A stretch of DNA of 64,000 nucleotides from a virus. Taxonomy: Duplodnaviria > Heunggongvirae > Uroviricota > Caudoviricetes. Position 1 is the first letter of the stretch. Every line of letters starts with the position of its first letter. The stretch is from IMG/VR virus record IMGVR_UViG_2563366911_000001; one strand, written 5' to 3'. The notes under the pieces were generated by a model. It saw only the letters and a list, made by a program, of their open reading frames with translations, ran no database searches and was not told where the DNA came from. Shown one piece after another: positions 4,166 through 51,295 of the stretch. A program made the position numbers and the translations under genes.

Positions 4166-4366
4166 TTATCTGCTGCCCGGCATTCTCTGTTTAAGCACAA
4201 CCATTTCCTGACGGCATAACACAGCAATAGCAGTCCTGGCTCCAATTTGCTTACCAACCAGGTATTGCTTTACCTCGCGGCGACTCACGCCATCAAGAAG
4301 CATCTTTAACGCTTCACGGGACAATTTGTTGTATTTGCGTGCCATTAATCTACTCCGCAGAACCAT
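4166..4366 (-). CDS. Small basic hypothetical protein (about 59-66 aa)
   Basis: Short ORF immediately downstream of doc; start uncertain. Confidence 0.4.
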
Positions 4367-4730
4367 ACAATCTACGCAACGTGTCGGCGACAGAAGATAC
4401 AGATATCTCGCCAGTCGCAGCGCCTACAGTAAGGTCTGCCAGTTCAGGTGAATCAAATACCTGCACCCCGTTACGGCGTAGAAATAGCAGCGCGCTGTTT
4501 AGCGCGGTACGCTTATTGGCATCATTGAATATATGCCCTCTCGCTGTAGCCACCAGGTAGGTGGCGGAGACTTCGAAAAGGTCGGTGATCTCTTCGTAGG
4601 CAACTCTGGCCTGAACTCTCCCGATAATGGCCTCTGCCCTGCCCGGATCTGACATGCCAGGCAGGCCGCCGTAGCGGCTTATATTCGCATCATGAAGCGC
4701 AATAAGTTCTTCCGGTGATATATGCCTCAT
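4350..4730 (-). CDS. doc: Doc toxin (Fic/Doc family), 126 aa
   Basis: [26 protein letters not shown]-terminus and [11 protein letters not shown] Fic-type motif; start overlaps phd stop. Confidence 0.9.
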
Positions 4731-4957
4731 TATCGGTTAACCAGTTCCTTGTTGGTGGAGTCCAGGGTGTCAAACAGGGATGCAAATTCAGCATCCAGCG
4801 CCGCTTTTTTGTAGGCTTCGAAAGTAGCCTTGCTGACAATTACTGCTGGCTCACGGCCTCTGCGGGTGATTTCAACCTCTTCCCCGGCTTCAACATTGTT
4901 GAGCACTTCAGAAAGGTTGCCGCGCGCGGTACGGAAGTTAATGGATTGCATAAACAC
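4730..4957 (-). CDS. phd: Phd antitoxin (probable start at 4951, 73 aa)
   Basis: [32 protein letters not shown]; translationally coupled to doc. Confidence 0.9.
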
Positions 4958-31363: not shown

Positions 31364-31439
31364 AAACCGGCATTGGCGATGGTGGATGGATTTGAACCAT
31401 CGACCCGTTGATTAACAGTCAACCGCTCTAACCGCTGAG
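31364..31439 (-). tRNA. tRNA-Asn (GUU)
   Basis: 76 nt, anticodon loop CTGTTAA, GGTTCAAATCC T-arm, encoded CCA; 2-nt spacer to tRNA-Thr. Confidence 0.85.
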
Positions 31440-31915
31440 CTACACCATCACTTGCCGGGTACGTCTCCGGCGAGGGCTTCCACCTCCGTATGCTTTTCGG
31501 CGCACCGCGCCCTGGCTGCAATTCGGTAACAGGGGATGCACAACCCTGGCTTCCAGCGTGATTAGCGCCTTCAGCATGACGGGATATACCCGTAAATTCG
31601 TGGAACTGTACCCAAAGTGCTGTTAAGCACCGCTGTTACGCTGAAAAGAAAACGCAACAGGAAAGGACGCTGACCAACAGATGGCCCCTTCTCGTTCATC
31701 TGGTTAATCACACCAGCGCCCTTACCTGTTGTGCCTCCCCGTTCCCTAATACACAGACGGGGACACTCTGCGGTCGATTTTTTTGACGGGGGACGACTCA
31801 TACCCCGTGGCATCTGGTTTCTTAGGCCGCTACCATCATCAGATCATCGTTTGCATTTACTTTAATGGTCAGTTTCTAAACCGCCGCAAAGTCGCTAACC
31901 ATGACGAAAACCCTG

Positions 31916-38173: not shown

Positions 38174-39034
38174 ATGAATCAATCATTTATCTCCGATATT
38201 CTTTACGCAGACATTGAAAGTAAGGCAAAAGAACTAACAGTTAATTCAAACAACACTGTCCAGCCTGTAGCGTTGATGCGCTTGGGGGTATTCGTTCCGA
38301 AGCCATCAAAGAGCAAAGGAGAAAGTAAAGAGATTGATGCCACCAAAGCGTTTTCCCAGCTGGAGATAGCTAAAGCCGAGGGTTACGATGATATTAAAAT
38401 CACCGGTCCTCGACTCGATATGGATACTGATTTCAAAACGTGGATCGGTGTCATCTACGCGTTCAGCAAATACGGCTTGTCCTCAAACACCATCCAGTTA
38501 TCGTTTCAGGAATTCGCTAAAGCCTGTGGTTTCCCCTCAAAACGTCTGGATGCGAAACTGCGTTTAACCATTCATGAATCACTTGGACGCTTACGTAACA
38601 AGGGTATCGCTTTTAAGCGCGGAAAAGATGCTAAAGGCGGCTATCAGACTGGTCTGCTAAAGGTCGGTCGTTTTGATGCTGACCTTGATCTGATAGAGCT
38701 GGAGGCTGATTCGAAGTTGTGGGAGCTGTTCCAGCTTGATTATCGCGTTCTGTTGCAACACCACGCCTTGCGTGCCCTTCCGAAGAAAGAAGCTGCACAA
38801 GCCATTTACACTTTCATCGAAAGCCTTCCGCAGAACCCGTTGCCGCTATCGTTCGCGCGAATCCGTGAGCGCCTGGCTTTGCAGTCAGCTGTTGGCGAGC
38901 AAAACCGTATCATTAAGAAAGCGATAGAACAGCTTAAAACAATCGGCTATCTCGACTGTTCTATTGAGAAGAAAGGCCGGGAAAGTTTTGTAATCGTCCA
39001 TTCTCGCAATCCAAAGCTGAAACTCCCCGAATAA
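38174..39034 (+). CDS. repA: Plasmid replication initiator RepA, 286 aa
   Basis: Flanked by incC-like and incA-like iteron arrays. Confidence 0.9.
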   Translation: MNQSFISDILYADIESKAKELTVNSNNTVQPVALMRLGVFVPKPSKSKGESKEIDATKAFSQLEIAKAEGYDDIKITGPRLDMDTDFKTWIGVIYAFSKYGLSSNTIQLSFQEFAKACGFPSKRLDAKLRLTIHESLGRLRNKGIAFKRGKDAKGGYQTGLLKVGRFDADLDLIELEADSKLWELFQLDYRVLLQHHALRALPKKEAAQAIYTFIESLPQNPLPLSFARIRERLALQSAVGEQNRIIKKAIEQLKTIGYLDCSIEKKGRESFVIVHSRNPKLKLPE

Positions 39035-39591: not shown

Positions 39592-40788
39592 ATGAGTGAT
39601 TCCAGCCAGCTTCACAAGGTTGCTCAAAGAGCAAACAGAATGCTCAATGTTCTGACTGAACAAGTACAGTTGCAAAAGGATGAGCTACACGCGAACGAGT
39701 TTTACCAGGTCTATGCGAAAGCGGCACTGGCAAAATTGCCTCTACTGACTCGAGCGAACGTTGACTATGCCGTAAGTGAAATGGAAGAAAAGGGTTATGT
39801 TTTCGATAAACGCCCTGCTGGCTCTTCAATGAAATATGCGATGTCAATTCAGAACATCATTGACATATATGAACATCGCGGAGTGCCAAAATACCGGGAT
39901 CGCTACAGCGAAGCGTATGTGATTTTCATCTCCAATCTTAAAGGCGGTGTGTCAAAAACTGTATCGACGGTTTCTCTGGCGCATGCAATGCGTGCTCACC
40001 CTCATCTTCTTATGGAGGATTTAAGGATTCTGGTTATTGACCTTGATCCGCAATCTTCAGCAACGATGTTTTTAAGCCATAAACACTCTATTGGTATCGT
40101 AAACGCAACATCTGCACAGGCTATGTTGCAGAATGTAAGCCGTGAAGAGCTGTTAGAGGAGTTTATTGTTCCTTCTGTTGTACCTGGGGTTGACGTTATG
40201 CCTGCGTCGATTGACGATGCCTTTATTGCATCCGATTGGAGAGAGCTGTGCAATGAGCATCTACCGGGTCAGAACATCCATGCTGTCCTGAAAGAAAATG
40301 TGATTGATAAGCTGAAGAGCGATTATGACTTTATCCTCGTTGATAGTGGTCCTCACCTTGACGCCTTCCTGAAAAATGCTTTGGCCTCGGCCAATATACT
40401 GTTTACACCTCTGCCGCCAGCAACTGTCGATTTCCACTCATCGCTTAAATACGTTGCCCGCCTTCCTGAGTTGGTAAAACTCATTTCGGATGAAGGCTGC
40501 GAGTGCCAGCTTGCGACTAACATTGGTTTTATGTCCAAGTTGAGTAACAAGGCAGATCATAAGTATTGCCATAGCCTGGCTAAAGAAGTGTTCGGTGGGG
40601 ATATGCTCGATGTCGTCCTCCCTCGCCTTGACGGTTTTGAACGTTGCGGCGAGTCTTTTGACACTGTTATTTCAGCTAACCCGGCAACGTATGTTGGTAG
40701 TGCTGATGCATTGAAGAACGCGCGAATTGCCGCGGAAGATTTTGCTAAAGCAGTTTTTGACCGTATTGAATTTATCAGATCTAACTGA
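39592..40788 (+). CDS. parA: Partition ATPase ParA, 398 aa
   Basis: Deviant Walker A KGGVSKT, N-terminal DNA-binding extension. Confidence 0.9.
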   Translation: MSDSSQLHKVAQRANRMLNVLTEQVQLQKDELHANEFYQVYAKAALAKLPLLTRANVDYAVSEMEEKGYVFDKRPAGSSMKYAMSIQNIIDIYEHRGVPKYRDRYSEAYVIFISNLKGGVSKTVSTVSLAHAMRAHPHLLMEDLRILVIDLDPQSSATMFLSHKHSIGIVNATSAQAMLQNVSREELLEEFIVPSVVPGVDVMPASIDDAFIASDWRELCNEHLPGQNIHAVLKENVIDKLKSDYDFILVDSGPHLDAFLKNALASANILFTPLPPATVDFHSSLKYVARLPELVKLISDEGCECQLATNIGFMSKLSNKADHKYCHSLAKEVFGGDMLDVVLPRLDGFERCGESFDTVISANPATYVGSADALKNARIAAEDFAKAVFDRIEFIRSN

Positions 40789-40804
40789 GGAGTAAGAACC
40801 CCCC

Positions 40805-41806
40805 ATGTCAAAGAAAAACAGACCAACAATTGGGCGAACCCTTAATCCTTCAATATTAAGCGGATTTGATAGTTCTTCAGCCTCTGGCGATCGAGTCGAG
40901 CAGGTATTCAAGTTATCAACTGGTCGCCAGGCCACATTTATTGAAGAGGTAATACCTCCGAACCAGGTAGAAAGCGATACCTTTGTTGATCAGCATAACA
41001 ACGGGCGTGACCAGGCATCTCTTACGCCAAAATCATTAAAAAGTATCCGAAGCACTATTAAGCATCAGCAATTTTACCCTGCAATAGGTGTTAGACGGGC
41101 TACAGGGAAAATTGAAATTTTGGATGGTTCCCGGCGTCGAGCTTCTGCCATCTTAGAGAACGTAGGGTTGCGGGTTTTAGTCACGGACCAGGAGATCAGC
41201 GTTCAGGAAGCGCAAAATTTAGCGAAAGACGTTCAGACAGCATTGCAGCACAGCATTCGAGAAATAGGTCTGCGTTTGATGCGAATGAAAAATGATGGGA
41301 TGAGTCAGAAGGATATTGCAGCCAAAGAAGGGCTGTCTCAGGCGAAGGTCACGCGTGCTCTCCAGGCAGCGAGTGCTCCGGAAGAATTAGTCGCCCTTTT
41401 CCCTGTGCAGTCGGAATTAACCTTTTCGGACTACAAAACGCTTTGTGCTGTTGGCGACGAAATGGGGAACAAGAATTTAGAGTTTGATCAGCTTATTCAA
41501 AACATATCCCCGGAAATAAACGACATCTTATCCATTGAAGAAATGGCCGAAGATGAAGTTAAAAATAAAATCCTGCGCTTGATAACAAAGGAAGCCTCAC
41601 TACTCACGGATAAAGGTTCTAAAGATAAGTCCGTAGTTACTGAATTATGGAAATTTGAGGACAAGGATCGCTTTGCAAGGAAGCGCGTGAAAGGCCGTGC
41701 ATTTTCTTATGAGTTTAATCGACTTTCAAAAGAGCTACAGGAAGAACTCGACAGGATGATTGGGCATATCCTTAGAAAGAGCCTCGATAAAAAGCCGAAG
41801 CCTTAA
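40805..41806 (+). CDS. parB: Partition protein ParB, 333 aa
   Basis: ParB-type HTH region; followed by parS. Confidence 0.9.
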   Translation: MSKKNRPTIGRTLNPSILSGFDSSSASGDRVEQVFKLSTGRQATFIEEVIPPNQVESDTFVDQHNNGRDQASLTPKSLKSIRSTIKHQQFYPAIGVRRATGKIEILDGSRRRASAILENVGLRVLVTDQEISVQEAQNLAKDVQTALQHSIREIGLRLMRMKNDGMSQKDIAAKEGLSQAKVTRALQAASAPEELVALFPVQSELTFSDYKTLCAVGDEMGNKNLEFDQLIQNISPEINDILSIEEMAEDEVKNKILRLITKEASLLTDKGSKDKSVVTELWKFEDKDRFARKRVKGRAFSYEFNRLSKELQEELDRMIGHILRKSLDKKPKP

Positions 41807-46841: not shown

Positions 46842-47351
46842 ATGGGGCACAATAACACTAAGGGAAACCGTAAATTTATTAAGGGCCGCTATACTGCCAA
46901 CGCGGCCAAAGGCGAACGACTGGTATCTTCTGAATTCCAGCTCACTTTTGCAGGCCATGAAGATATCAGCGTACTGGTTCGCACGTCGCAAATTCCTGAA
47001 ATGACCCGCGAGGATGTGGAGGACTATGGTCCGAATGGTGTGAAGTTCAACCAGCACGGACCAATTCGAAACTCTGGGGAAATCCAGGTCCAGTGCGTGG
47101 AGACTATCGAAGGCGATATTCTTCAGTTCATCAAGGATCGCATTGCGGCGAAGGACTATGTTGATATCACGATGGCTGCTACCCCTGAATCCAAATCTTC
47201 CGGGGTTAACGCTGTGACAAAAGCTGCTACAACAATTGAAATGTTGGACTGCAAAATCTACAGTGATGCAATCGACTTTAGTACCGAAGATGTGACTGCC
47301 GCTGTGCGCCCGTCACTTCGTATCGTCTACAACTGGATTGAGTGGGATTAA
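46842..47351 (+). CDS. Putative tail tube protein (T4 gp19-like), 169 aa
   Basis: Size and weak pattern similarity to myovirus tube proteins. Confidence 0.45.
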   Translation: MGHNNTKGNRKFIKGRYTANAAKGERLVSSEFQLTFAGHEDISVLVRTSQIPEMTREDVEDYGPNGVKFNQHGPIRNSGEIQVQCVETIEGDILQFIKDRIAAKDYVDITMAATPESKSSGVNAVTKAATTIEMLDCKIYSDAIDFSTEDVTAAVRPSLRIVYNWIEWD

Positions 47352-47371
47352 GAGTCATCCCTTGTATTTTA

Positions 47372-47396
47372 AAGCTCCTTCGGGAGCTTTTTTATT
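47372..47396 (+). terminator. Intrinsic terminator ending the structural operon
   Basis: AAAGCTCC-ttcg-GGAGCTTTTTT. Confidence 0.75.
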
Positions 47397-47467
47397 TGGA
47401 GAGGAAAGGGTGCATTGAGGATACCTGACACACGAAGAGTGGCGAGGATCTCTCCCCGCCAGGTCTC

Positions 47468-47623
47468 TTACCTTTCAGATTCGTAGGCTGTGAAGACAGT
47501 GACCTCCGTCTGGCCGGTTCGGATTCGTACCTCGCAGAGGTCTTTCCTCGTTACCAGTGCCGTCACAATGACGGTTAAACAGATGACGATCAGAGCGATT
47601 AACATCGCTTTTTGCTGCTTCAT
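47468..47623 (-). CDS. hok: Hok/Gef-family type I toxin, 51 aa (not in ORF track)
   Basis: MKQQKAMLIALIVICLTVIVTALVTRKDLCEVRIRTGQTEVTVFTAYESER matches Hok family (LIVCLT...TRKSLCEIR...AYES). Confidence 0.8.
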   Translation of the reverse strand: MKQQKAMLIALIVICLTVIVTALVTRKDLCEVRIRTGQTEVTVFTAYESER

Positions 47624-47681
47624 AGCCTGCTTCTCCTTGACCTTTTGGTCGGTAAGAGGCTAATCTACGTATGCTAAGCAT
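47475..47681 (-). CDS. mok: Mok-like overlapping reading frame spanning hok
   Basis: Out-of-frame ORF starting upstream of hok and ending with it. Confidence 0.5.
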   Translation of the reverse strand: MLSIRRLASYRPKGQGEAGYEAAKSDVNRSDRHLFNRHCDGTGNEERPLRGTNPNRPDGGHCLHSLRI

Positions 47682-47730
47682 AGATATGGCCTCAGATTAA
47701 TGTTAAGCGTCTTGCAGGACGCGTAATGTT
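47640..47730 (+). ncRNA. sok: Candidate Sok-like antisense RNA (approximate bounds)
   Basis: Antisense to the mok start region; TTGACC-n18-TAATCT promoter-like element; hairpin GCGTCttgcaGGACGC. Confidence 0.3.
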
Positions 47731-47804
47731 ATCTGGGGCTTTCTTCTATCTGCTTTTCGGGTAATGCCTGAAGCAGATAGCCTCAAGCACCCGCAACGAT
47801 TGTA

Positions 47805-48131
47805 TCAATGTCTGGCTTTTTTTCTATAGAAATCACCTGGAAGGGTGAATATCCACATCAGAAGAAATGTTGCAGCAAACATGATCCCTAATGGCCAGAC
47901 CGCGCCAAAGAAAATCCATACTAAGATCTCCTCTGCTCGTTCTTTGCGGTCGATATCGACAAGCATTTTTCGGCTGATCATGTATACACAGAAGCCAATA
48001 CAAACATATCCTGCAAAAGCGATCGCTAACTGTAAAAAATCAGATTGCATCTCCGACCTCAAACTGAAAACGCCAGGTGACTCCAGATTAGAGCAATCTA
48101 TCACCCTCTGAATCCTGCCGGTATACCCCAT
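47805..48131 (-). CDS. Small multi-TM membrane protein (81-108 aa)
   Basis: Hydrophobic helices; immediately downstream of repL. Confidence 0.55.
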   Translation of the reverse strand: MGYTGRIQRVIDCSNLESPGVFSLRSEMQSDFLQLAIAFAGYVCIGFCVYMISRKMLVDIDRKERAEEILVWIFFGAVWPLGIMFAATFLLMWIFTLPGDFYRKKARH

Positions 48132-48946
48132 TGTTCGTTATCTTTATTTTTGGCTAAAACCGCATTAAGAGCTTCGTTTACCGTCATGCAATGCGGCAGA
48201 TTATCGAAGTTTGATATCCCGCCAATATCAGGAGAACGCTTGTCCTTCAGGTAAGCATATTTCCGCGCTGCCGCCTCTACTTTCTGCTTGAACTCATGTT
48301 TTTGAGCGCGTTTTTTGGATAACCGCAGATTGTCAGCCTTTACTTTTGCCTCAGCGATCCATGAAGTCAATTTTTTGAGTCTGGTCGTTCCGGCACCGCC
48401 GGAAACTGATCTTTTTGTTTTTTTAACTTGTGACTTCTTATTCTTTATTGCCACGTCATCCTGACAGGGGGAGGGGGTATCATTTTGACATGGGGGTGTG
48501 GATAAAAAATTAAATAAAACCAATGTCTTAGCAAGAACAGCTTTAACCTTGGTTGCCGCTGAAGAGATCTTTAATTTGCTTTCAATCAGCGCATTTTTGG
48601 CTTGTTGTGCGAAGGCCAAAAAGGATGGTGTAAACCGGTACAGGTTAGCGCGACGTTCACGGTGATCGCCGATAACAATCTCTACAGACAGGATTCCTTT
48701 GTTTACAGCTTCACGGAATGCACGAACGACGGTTGATTGGCTATAACCAGTTTCTGCCGCGATCAGGCGGTGAGGCTTGTGAATGAAGTATTCACTGGTT
48801 GTTGCCGCTAGATTTGCACATTGCGACAGGATATGCCCGGCGCTACGGGATAGACCGGAGTGTGTTACAAAGCAGGCCAATTCATAGCCAGAAAAAGTAA
48901 AATCGCTCATCGTTATACAGCTCAGGAAAGTGACTTTAGCCAGCAT
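48101..48946 (-). CDS. repL: Lytic replication initiator RepL-like, 281 aa
   Basis: Size and position downstream of kilA; HTH-like segment GYSQSTVVRAFREAVNKGIL. Confidence 0.75.
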   Translation of the reverse strand: MLAKVTFLSCITMSDFTFSGYELACFVTHSGLSRSAGHILSQCANLAATTSEYFIHKPHRLIAAETGYSQSTVVRAFREAVNKGILSVEIVIGDHRERRANLYRFTPSFLAFAQQAKNALIESKLKISSAATKVKAVLAKTLVLFNFLSTPPCQNDTPSPCQDDVAIKNKKSQVKKTKRSVSGGAGTTRLKKLTSWIAEAKVKADNLRLSKKRAQKHEFKQKVEAAARKYAYLKDKRSPDIGGISNFDNLPHCMTVNEALNAVLAKNKDNEQWGIPAGFRG

Positions 48947-49845: not shown

Positions 49846-49865
49846 AAATTTATTAGAGCAAATTT
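49846..49865 (-). promoter_or_regulatory. C1-type operator (TTTGCTCTAATAAATTT) upstream of kilA-repL
   Basis: 16 of 17 match to operator consensus, about 70 bp upstream of the kilA start. Confidence 0.6.
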
Positions 49866-51204: not shown

Positions 51205-51295
51205 TTACGGCCTCGTAAGTTGATAAACAACCTGCGACCCGCTGCTAAACAGGTGGCAGGACGTGACGGGGTTAGCAGACTGGCACTTACGAAAC
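51205..51295 (-). ncRNA. c4: c4-like antisense regulatory RNA (approximate bounds)
   Basis: Two short stems TTCGTAAGT/ACTTACGAG and CTGCTAAC/GTTTAGCAG; copies of GTTTAGCAG and ACTTACG recur about 130 nt upstream. Confidence 0.45.

Follow-up and report, generated by a model that had tools for sequence, protein, structure and literature searches.

The hok/mok/sok (parB) locus of plasmid R1, for which post-segregational killing has been proven by experiment, produces hok mRNAs of 441 and 398 nt that are processed to 361 nt. Its mok, of ~70 codons, overlaps hok in the +1 frame, its mRNA folds back from the 5′ to the 3′ end, and its Sok is a cis-antisense RNA of ~64–70 nt in which an unpaired 5′ tail precedes a single long hairpin (PMC1635323). 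Other members of the family are closer in sequence to the locus described here. In the Shiga-toxin phage 933W, and also in VT2-Sakai, Stx phages and Rac-type prophages, the system is hokW/mokW/sokW, with all three genes annotated. K-12 hokD (relF), located in the Qin prophage, has no promoter, leader, tac, mok start or sok because relBE abuts it, and its UACG Tyr codon is edited (PMC5630033). The hokC (gef)/mokC/sokC loci are chromosomal; according to 10.1101/2025.08.07.668861, which cites Pedersen & Gerdes 1999, chromosomal hokA, hokB and hokC with all regulatory elements were negative in post-segregational killing and rifampicin assays.

Here we describe a further member, present in a 64,000-nt stretch of DNA (the window). 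We put at about 85% the probability that positions 47366–47826 hold an intact hok/mok/sok type I toxin–antitoxin cassette of the hokD/hokW subgroup, situated in the repL–bplB cargo slot of a P1-like phage-plasmid. The assignment draws on sequence family, gene layout, consensus promoters, RNA folds with covariation, and distribution. A preliminary description had placed a hok/mok/sok-type locus at 47440–47730. The type I identification is supported in silico by the toxin family, the overlapping mok, the antisense gene and a covarying 5′–3′ fold-back, and the locus does lie there; however, the interval is too narrow for the whole unit (~47366–47826), because it leaves out the hok promoter and mRNA 5′ end (47792–47826), the fbi box (47408–47420) and the terminator (47371–47390).

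Comparison with known hok systems

Within the family, the cassette groups with the chromosomal and prophage loci hokD/hokW/hokC (86–91% nucleotide identity) and not with the R1/F plasmid subgroup. Its nearest relative, hokW of 933W, is 86.5% identical in nucleotides across exactly the transcript unit (47408–47804), is likewise phage-borne and agrees with the window in leader hairpin, tac/fbi and the architecture of Sok; HokW differs from the Hok of the window near the C terminus only. Whereas 933W is an integrated lambdoid phage, the window comes from an extrachromosomal P1-like plasmid prophage. In 933W, 57 nt separate the mok and hok AUGs, so that MokW is Hok with an N-terminal extension in the same frame. 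One extra T in the window (GGTCAAGG) raises this distance to 58 nt and shifts mok to the +1 frame, with its end 7 nt short of the hok stop; the same T converts the Sok −35 from TTGCCT (hokW) to TTGACC and extends the spacer to 18 nt. In R1, the mok-to-hok AUG distance is also 58 nt. The mok frame differs across the family, being +1 in the window and in-frame in the hokW and hokC types.

K-12 hokD is 91% identical in nucleotides to the window between a point shortly before the hok start and fbi (47637–47408) and has the same UACG Tyr codon, but the window has the complete regulatory set. Chromosomal hokC loci (L017–L023) are ~74% identical over the transcript and have the structural elements in common with the window; they differ in their in-frame mok and in a leader hairpin that an 18-nt deletion makes shorter in alignment A1 (27 diverse loci from Escherichia, Kluyvera, Citrobacter, Photorhabdus, Erwinia and others). 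The likeness to R1 is one of layout, namely +1-frame mok, tail-and-hairpin Sok, fold-back and similar mRNA size, with no megablast-level DNA similarity. The two Hok peptides are only 42% identical in amino acids. Post-segregational killing is an experimental result for R1 hok/sok and a possibility for the window allele and its subgroup.

The Hok toxin and the mok frame

The hok gene, on the minus strand at 47468–47623, encodes a 51-aa peptide (MKQQKAMLIALIVICLTVIVTALVTRKDLCEVRIRTGQTEVTVFTAYESER) that covers the full model of Pfam PF01848 HOK_GEF (1–42/42, 78.7 bits, E = 2.4e-22) and matches PHROG 251 ‘MokW-like host killing’ (E = 4.9e-32), which confirms the 51-codon Hok/Gef ORF recognized earlier. 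It has the size of a Hok/Gef toxin (~50 aa), an N-terminal transmembrane helix and the conserved C-terminal part. The peptide is identical to E. coli K-12 HokD/RelF at 48/51 residues, and the RefSeq entry at the identical locus is WP_001313475.1, ‘type I toxin-antitoxin system toxin HokD’. In NCBIfam, the models for the Hok subfamily and for HokA give scores under the curated thresholds (49.5/73 and 38.1/89 bits), and the name HokD therefore rests on peptide identity and the RefSeq label, not on an HMM equivalog. An alignment of the peptide with HokD, R1 Hok, SrnB and PndA shows that they have in common a conserved Cys, an Arg four residues before it and an AYE motif. The 94% identity to HokD/RelF suggests that Hok is toxic and that Sok would neutralize it. 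A hok Shine–Dalgarno sequence, AAGGAG (47633–47638, minus strand), is read from the sequence and is nearly invariant in A1. The gene had been described as missed by the ORF track; it is indeed absent there, but only through a 60-aa length cut-off, and the exact toxin gene is publicly annotated as hokD or MokW.

The longer mok-like ORF reported to overlap hok out of frame is present at 47475–47681 (minus strand, 68 codons, +1 relative to hok), with its start codon at a family-conserved column, and matches PHROG 37205 (E = 8e-21). It has its own Shine–Dalgarno sequence, GAGG (47690–47693, minus strand), 7 nt upstream, which is located at the base of the leader hairpin, is sequestered in the predicted fold and is invariant in 27/27 loci. 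In this overlapping layout, mok is predicted to be translationally coupled to hok.

The Sok antisense gene

On the plus strand, a Sok promoter predicted by eye consists of −35 TTGACC (47637–47642), an 18-nt spacer and −10 TAATCT (47661–47666). Its core is invariant in 27/27 loci (−35 TTG and −10 A2/T6, the complements of C154/A155/A156 and T131/A127), conservation that for the −35 can be partly explained by overlap with the hok Shine–Dalgarno sequence. A generic consensus promoter scan detected the hok promoter and missed this one, the −10 of which is weak (3/6). The promoter precedes a predicted Sok antisense RNA of ~70 nt (~47673–47746, plus strand), onto which the annotated sokW of 933W maps through A1 (47673–47743). 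This 74-nt stretch folds into a 15-nt single-stranded tail, a ~24-bp hairpin and UUCUUC (−29.9 kcal/mol, z = −5.4, 0/200 shuffles as stable), and the predicted RNA contains the complement of both the mok start codon and its Shine–Dalgarno sequence. Promoter, tail, hairpin, U-tail and coverage of the mok initiation region are those of a cis-antisense Sok, whose expression is predicted; the promoter-like and hairpin elements noticed earlier on this strand are thereby accounted for.

Rfam RF01794 (sok) has a sole match in the window, at 47618–47792 (114.9 bits; gathering score, 59). We rejected this match as the antitoxin gene: it is on the minus, hok-sense strand, with its 3′ end at the hok AUG, and thus marks the hok leader, the real Sok being its complement; the plus-strand match scores just 21 bits. 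A naive reading of the Rfam name puts the antitoxin on the wrong strand, and public records annotate the toxin only (as hokD), without mok or Sok.

Structure and conservation of the hok mRNA

The predicted hok promoter (47799–47826, minus strand, from the consensus scan) comprises −35 TAGAAA (47826–47821), a 16-nt spacer and an extended −10, TGaTACAAT (47807–47799), which stops 7 nt short of the conserved 5′ end, GGGUGC. The promoter overlaps the stop codon of an upstream 81-aa ORF, and homology to 933W hokW begins within it, at 47804. The full-length mRNA is predicted to span 47366–47792 on the minus strand; its length would be ~382 nt counted to the fbi box and ~427 nt counted to the terminator. 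In comparisons with 27+ diverse hok loci, homology starts within 1–3 nt of 47792 and stops at 47408, in fbi; in all loci compared, the conserved unit is the predicted hok transcript, from ~+1 to fbi. The terminator, a bidirectional intrinsic hairpin (AAAGCUCC-UUCG-GGAGCUUU, 47371–47390) common to bplB (plus strand) and hok (minus strand), is kept in every slot allele, and P1 homology reaches 47393.

The full-length mRNA has a minimum free energy (MFE) of −165.7 kcal/mol (z = −8.0) with its ends closed by tac and fbi. The tac element at the 5′ end (GGGUGCUUGAGG, 47781–47792, minus strand) pairs in the MFE structure with the complementary fold-back inhibition box, fbi (CCUCAAUGCACCC, 47408–47420, minus strand), in a 12-bp helix with a UA-to-CG double change; in A1, tac U4–A is replaced by C–G in 7 Photorhabdus loci. 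Across the 27 loci, 86.1% of cells are paired, compared with 38–44% when partners are slid, and 38 pairs show double changes; none of 500 shuffles attains the covariation score of the alignment. The tac–fbi helix (helix 1) is paired in 89.8% of cells, with double changes at 3 pairs, and the leader hairpin (helix 5) in 92.7%, with 6 covarying pairs; helices 6 and 7, around the mok AUG, are merely 58–62% paired. A GC-rich 3′-UTR hairpin between the hok stop and fbi (GGCGGGGAGAGAUCCUCGCC, 47441–47460, minus strand, helix 17) is 87.7% paired with 4 covarying pairs. The tac–fbi pairing, the conserved mRNA structure and the RF01794 match of 114.9 bits are together those of a compact hok mRNA fold. 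In nascent or 3′-truncated RNA, tac is predicted to form a local hairpin instead (nt 2–30, −17.7 kcal/mol, z = −5.1). Removal of the 3′ end alters the predicted 5′ fold by local refolding and does not clearly expose the mok Shine–Dalgarno sequence, and we set the truncated-mRNA MFE aside as evidence for an activation step.

Near the 3′ end of hok, a small hairpin (CAG-CCUACGAAU-CUG, 47476–47490, minus strand) holds the Tyr47 codon UAC (47485–47483) within UACG (47485–47482), at the position equivalent to Tyr46 of HokC/D/E. TACGAA is invariant in 27/27 loci and the stem covaries. These are the sequence and structural features of a TadA-edited hok, which suggests a candidate A-to-I site at which TadA may recode Tyr47 to Cys, an extra layer of toxicity tuning as in hokC/D/E.

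Host element and cargo slot

The element is a P1-like phage-plasmid (Punavirus) in its kilA–repL, repA with iterons, parAB, phd–doc, C4 RNA, C1 operators and collinearity with P1. As stated earlier for this element, phd–doc, parAB and iteron control are all present: phd at 4733–4951, doc at 4353–4730, repA at 38174–39034 with iterons on both sides, parA at 39592–40788 and parB at 40805–41806, with Pfam matches to Phd, Doc, Rep3, ParA and ParB. The window also contains the C4 immunity RNA, tRNAs and 10 C1-operator matches (0.3 expected). The cassette lies between bplB (end at 47351) and repL (48101–48946), adjoining the repL region as first described, and its flanks are 97–99% identical to P1/P7. 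BLAST breakpoints and the P1 annotation delimit a 693-bp cargo segment (47394–48086), containing the 81-aa ORF and hok/mok/sok, that replaces the 1826-bp pmgF–rlfB–rlfA segment of reference P1; there is no C1 operator between repL and hok, the P1 Orlf operator having been lost at the breakpoint.

The 81-aa ORF (47805–48050, minus strand; PGAP hypothetical WP_001426344.1; hydrophobic by eye) has no assigned function: it matches PHROG 3772, of unknown function (E = 6e-54), and gave no significant Pfam, NCBIfam or PADLOC match. It travels with the cassette in P1-like elements. We rejected it as part of the toxin–antitoxin unit, because other hok loci are homologous no further than 47804.

The identical cassette is present, labelled hokD, in 262 PLSDB plasmids and in 236/5,426 complete E. 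coli genomes, as well as in deposited P1-like phage records such as phi456 and Ro157c2YLVW. Since identical plasmids by the hundred already carry a hokD annotation, the cassette is already known, a real but ordinary find, and it leaves the current understanding of type I toxin–antitoxin systems unchanged. Our literature search for experimental studies of hok/sok in P1-like elements found none; Venturini et al. 2019 mention only ‘antibacterial toxin’ ORFs in place of rlfA–rlfB–pmgF. Reference P1 is unrepresentative here, as about half of natural P1-like plasmids carry hok/mok/sok where P1 has rlfA–rlfB–pmgF. The slot is tri-allelic, and hok+ is the commonest allele (262 of the ~507 repL-bearing PLSDB plasmids); the cassette is dispensable for the element, because ~1/4 of P1-like plasmids have lost hok at the slot and ~1/5 carry rlfA–rlfB–pmgF instead. 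The hok-less allele has a deletion of hok that begins at the start codon, and it retains the hok promoter, the leader and the promoter-bearing Sok gene (125 P1-like plasmids); the 5′ tail of this orphan Sok is identical to that of the window at 14–15/15 positions. A different toxin was considered for the hok-less alleles of RCS47, SJ46 and 673R5 and rejected: the ORF that follows the junction on the minus strand encodes 53 aa, is not hydrophobic and is an artefact, lying antisense to a plus-strand gene of 171–210 aa.

Proposed mechanism and biological role

By homology with the R1 paradigm (PMC1635323), we propose the following scheme, in which transcript ends, RNA half-lives, toxicity, editing and biological payoff are predictions. 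The promoter at 47826–47799 would constitutively produce an hok mRNA of ~380–430 nt, inert and long-lived because 5′ tac is paired with 3′ fbi and conserved helices enclose the ribosome-binding sites of both mok and hok. Slow 3′ trimming would strip fbi, and the RNA would refold into a translatable, Sok-binding form. While the element is present, the short, unstable Sok (~47673–47746) would pair across the mok Shine–Dalgarno sequence and AUG, keeping hok silent because ribosomes would reach hok only by translating mok, and the duplex would be destroyed by RNase III. Once the element is lost or transcription stops, Sok would decay first, the stored mRNA would be translated, and the 51-aa Hok would insert into the inner membrane and kill or arrest the cell.

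The most likely payoff, though unproven, is stabilization of the plasmid-prophage alongside phd–doc. A role as a second addiction system is plausible but unproven, because tested members of the chromosomal/prophage subgroup gave no post-segregational killing; since the cassette belongs to that subgroup, its intact anatomy is no guarantee of an addiction phenotype. If active, the cassette would add an RNA-controlled killer to a phd–doc element. This would be relevant to how P1-like plasmids persist; in E. coli from clinics and livestock, these plasmids carry blaCTX-M, mcr-1 and other resistance genes.

The cassette may instead be an intact but phenotypically silent, selfish hitch-hiker, transcribed and repressed like chromosomal hok loci, causing no post-segregational killing and spreading through a recombination-prone cargo slot. 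The negative assays of hokA, hokB and hokC cited above point this way, the element works with any of the three slot alleles, and the near-100% identity of the hundreds of copies may be a sign of recent spread and not of selection. Against this, hok+ is the commonest allele, no inactivating lesion was seen in the loci examined, and every regulatory element is preserved, including synonymous-site constraints (TACGAA, 27/27). HokD/RelF, 94% identical to the peptide of the window, is lethal when over-produced, as reported by Gerdes et al. (1986; ref. 10 in PMC1635323). We regard a silent cassette as possible, if on the unlikely side.

An active pair might also pay off in conflicts between mobile elements, through abortive infection or phage exclusion at host transcription shut-off, or in competition with incompatible P1-like plasmids. 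The nearest hok relatives are prophage-borne (933W, Rac and Qin), a further stabilizer is not obviously needed because the element already has phd–doc, parAB and iteron control, and a promoter-bearing sok without hok is the expected look of an anti-addiction or immunity allele. 10.1101/2025.08.07.668861 reports a four-fold enrichment of hok genes in prophages (23% observed versus 5% expected), but also that no hok enrichment near defence systems was found. PADLOC defence models matched neither Hok nor the 81-aa ORF nor the alternative-allele ORF, the T4 exclusion classically reported for R1 hok/sok was not reproduced in a 2026 re-test (PMC13047441), and no sequence feature distinguishes a conflict role from post-segregational killing; we consider such a role unlikely. 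More doubtful still is that the repL–bplB slot is an addiction/anti-addiction polymorphism, with the cassette serving competition between related phage-plasmids and not simple stabilization; cells from which a hok+ P1-like plasmid of the same incompatibility group is being displaced would be shielded from Hok by orphan Sok, if this is expressed.

Chance intergenic features or a decayed, functionless relic, which the 51-codon length of the ORF and the relic state of K-12 family copies might suggest, are effectively refuted by the Pfam (E = 2.4e-22) and Rfam (114.9 bits) matches, the covariation in 27 loci and the complete set of leader, mok, sok, tac and fbi.

A further observation concerns the 3′-UTR hairpin: the 10-mer GGATCTCTCC inside it (47446–47455), which occurs once in the window, is the target duplication of IS186B between bplB and repL in pSvP1 (PMC6906374).

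Identity of the locus

The hok toxin gene is an ORF of 51 codons on the minus strand (47468-47623; direct reading of 47366-47830 and ORF listing) that encodes MKQQKAMLIALIVICLTVIVTALVTRKDLCEVRIRTGQTEVTVFTAYESER. It covers the entire Pfam HOK_GEF model (78.7 bits, E=2.4e-22) and matches PHROG 251, 'MokW-like host killing' (E=4.9e-32); the peptide shares 48 of its 51 residues with E. coli K-12 HokD/RelF. The alignment to Hok that the preliminary description proposed as a check gave 42% identity with the Hok of plasmid R1. Overlapping hok is the mok frame, with 68 codons in the +1 frame relative to hok (47475-47681, minus strand; ORF listing). Both the Hok/Gef-family ORF and the out-of-frame mok-like ORF had been called from the sequence alone, and both stand. 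The Rfam model RF01794 matches at 47618-47792 on the minus strand (114.9 bits; gathering score 59), its sole match in the 64-kb window. Together, the toxin-family, HokD, mok-frame and Rfam matches confirm the locus far beyond chance, and we put the probability that it is a genuine hok/mok/sok locus at about 0.97.

The cassette is not new; it is an ordinary, already-annotated element, belonging to the chromosomal/prophage hokD/hokW/hokC subgroup. It is labelled hokD (WP_001313475.1) in RefSeq plasmids and 'MokW' in one P1-like phage record. Its nearest relative is hokW/mokW/sokW of phage 933W, where all three genes are annotated; in the window cassette, mok and Sok are absent from the public annotation.

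The hok mRNA and the Sok antisense RNA

Upstream of hok is a predicted promoter of the sigma-70 type whose -10 element is extended (TAGAAA, 16 nt, TGaTACAAT; 47826-47799, minus strand), and GGGUGCUUGAGG at 47792 begins 7 nt past the end of this promoter. A bidirectional terminator at 47371-47390 serves hok as well as bplB, the gene convergent with it. Among 47 BLAST-matched loci of other genomes, from Escherichia to Erwinia, similarity in nearly all full-length ones begins at most 1-3 nt from 47792 and ends at 47408, which makes the transcript the conserved unit. For the RNA that runs 427 nt from 47792 to the terminator, the predicted fold has z=-8.0; in this fold tac, the first 12 nt of the mRNA (47792-47781), pairs with the fold-back inhibition box fbi, CCUCAAUGCACCC (47420-47408). 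Taken alone, the first 31 nt fold into a stable hairpin of their own (-17.7 kcal/mol, z=-5.1), and when the RNA is shortened at its 3' end the predicted fold contains this hairpin instead of the tac-fbi helix. This predicted exchange is the type of refolding demanded by the R1 model, the later activation steps of which lie outside the prediction.

On the opposite strand, the antisense promoter-like and hairpin elements noticed earlier are borne out. The predicted Sok promoter, read from the sequence of the plus strand, comprises a -35 element TTGACC (47637-47642), an 18-nt spacer and a -10 element TAATCT (47661-47666). Downstream of it, the predicted Sok has a 15-nt free 5' tail, a hairpin of ~24 bp and UUCUUC (-29.9 kcal/mol, z=-5.4); its sequence complements both the start codon of mok (47681-47679) and the mok GAGG Shine-Dalgarno (SD) sequence (47693-47690). 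Through the alignment of hok loci described below, the annotated sokW RNA of 933W corresponds to window 47673-47743. In the same alignment, the TTG of the -35 element and A2 and T6 of the -10 element are unchanged in 27/27 loci, an invariance due in part to overlap with the hok SD. The RF01794 'sok' match has the orientation of hok and runs up to the hok AUG; it therefore marks the hok leader, and the antitoxin is its complement. Automated annotation by this model would put the antitoxin on the wrong strand.

Comparative support for structure, mok and a candidate editing site

We aligned the window with 26 loci (from the extracted loci L002 and L007-L050; about 67-88% identity) of 933W, Escherichia spp., Shigella, Kluyvera, Citrobacter, Photorhabdus, Erwinia and Kalamiella, and projected the minimum free energy structure of the window onto the alignment, with partners slid by 1-3 columns and 500 shuffles as controls. 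Paired cells made up 86.1%, compared with 38-44% for slid partners; both sides had changed at 38 of 134 pairs, and none of the 500 shuffles reached the observed covariation score. In the tac-fbi helix, a U-A pair is replaced by C-G in seven Photorhabdus loci. The leader hairpin is complementary to that of Sok and sequesters the mok SD; six of its pairs covary. Across the alignment, 90% pairing is seen in the helix over the region where hok starts, against a weaker 58-62% in those next to the mok AUG.

All 27 hok loci share the mok AUG and GAGG SD at fixed alignment columns, yet differ in the distance between the mok and hok AUGs (47623-47681 in the window). It is 58 nt, with mok in the +1 frame, in the window, one Enterobacteriaceae isolate and one Kluyvera locus; the mok of R1 is likewise in the +1 frame at 58 nt. 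At 57 nt (hokW, hokD, Photorhabdus and most hokC-type loci) the two are in frame and Mok is an N-extended Hok. In two of the four hokC-type loci, those of E. ruysiae and E. whittamii, and in three loci of Erwinia/Kalamiella, the distance is 56 nt; there mok has 19 codons and its stop overlaps the hok start. A single inserted T separates the window from its nearest relatives, and the same T improves the Sok -35 element. A variable frame behind a fixed AUG and SD is consistent with translation of mok as such being what matters, not the Mok peptide.

The Tyr47 codon UAC and the following G (47485-47482) form part of the loop of a hairpin with a 3-bp stem (47490-47476, minus strand). TACGAA is identical in 27/27 loci, synonymous positions included, and the stem covaries (UA:14/CG:12 and GC:18/AU:6). 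TadA edits the Tyr46 TACG site of hokC, hokD and hokE (Bar-Yaacov et al., PMC5630033), which the window UACG site matches. Judged by sequence, the window allele is a likely candidate for A-to-I editing.

Proposed mechanism and function

Beyond layout, folds and conservation, every step of the mechanism is proposed by homology with R1 (PMC1635323). The full-length hok mRNA would be compact, stable and untranslatable, and slow 3' processing would yield a form open to ribosomes or Sok. Abundant and very unstable, Sok would block translation of mok and hence of hok, and the Sok-mRNA duplex would be cut by RNase III. Upon gene loss, Sok would vanish first and Hok would be made. The predicted RNAs of the window (about 427 and 382 nt; Sok ~70 nt, its tail 15 nt) agree in size with those of R1 (441 and 398 nt, processed to 361 nt; Sok 64 nt with an 11-nt tail; PMC1635323).

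The cassette is probably an active toxin-antitoxin pair, and a second addiction system is plausible; that it measurably stabilizes the plasmid prophage seems to us slightly less likely than not. A recent survey (10.1101/2025.08.07.668861) that cites Pedersen & Gerdes 1999 gives the tested loci hokA, hokB and hokC as showing neither post-segregational killing nor activation by rifampicin, and the same source describes hok as enriched in prophages, with its function there unknown. The T4 exclusion reported earlier for R1 hok/sok failed to reproduce in 2026 (PMC13047441).

A tri-allelic slot between repL and bplB

The window is a P1-like phage-plasmid. The context of phd-doc, parAB and iterons stated in the preliminary description was found at 4353-4951 (phd-doc), at 39592-41806 (parA and parB) and on both sides of repA (38174-39034). 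Three tRNA genes and a C4 antisense RNA with a1/b1 targets (29224-29296, 31299-31449 and 51249-51454) are as expected for a P1-like genome, and ten C1-operator matches compare with 0.3 expected by chance.

In the slot, 693 bp (47394-48086) carrying an 81-aa ORF and hok/mok/sok stand in for 1826 bp of reference P1 (1495-3320 of the extracted locus L003) that contain pmgF, rlfB, rlfA and the Orlf operator. Substitution of rlfA-rlfB-pmgF in P1-like plasmids by ORFs 'including antibacterial toxin' has been described (Venturini et al. 2019, PMC6906374). One breakpoint directly follows the bplB terminator; the other is 14 nt beyond the stop codon of repL. Orlf, downstream of repL in P1, is gone at the breakpoint (48087-48100), the operator scan of the window found no C1 operator between repL and hok, and the nearest match is upstream of kilA (49846-49862); C1 control of the 81-aa ORF and hok is therefore possible only via kilA-repL read-through.

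The 81-aa ORF (47805-48050, minus strand) belongs to PHROG 3772, labelled unknown function, and is hydrophobic by eye; it has no above-threshold match in Pfam, NCBIfam or PADLOC. A longer, 108-aa version begins at 48131, probably not the real start, and overlaps the repL 3' end.

Among 507 PLSDB plasmids with repL, the slot is tri-allelic: 262 carry the 81-aa ORF and complete hok/sok, 125 lack hok and keep the leader and sok, and 99 have pmgF-rlfB-rlfA, making the allele of reference P1 the rarest. The full arrangement is also present in 236 of 5,426 complete E. coli genomes. The hok-less allele, exemplified by RCS47 (L052, 990-2016), SJ46 (L053, 994-2011) and 673R5 (L054, 993-1754; own coordinates of each locus; window equivalent 47394-47660), retains the 81-aa ORF, hok promoter, leader, mok start and Sok gene, with the orphan Sok promoter (TTGCTC-18-TAATCT) and hairpin intact. 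From the start codon on, hok is replaced by ~760 bp with a convergent gene of 171-210 aa (PHROG 7522, labelled unknown function). The 81-aa ORF is always present with either the hok or the orphan-sok allele in P1-like elements. Speculatively, orphan sok could be an anti-addiction allele.

In pSvP1, a target duplication of IS186B, GGATCTCTCC, is located between bplB and repL (Venturini 2019, PMC6906374); the window has a single copy, at 47446-47455, inside a GC-rich hairpin of the hok 3'-UTR. Insertion there would split fbi from the body of the hok mRNA. Hok loci of K-12 likewise have IS186 directly downstream.
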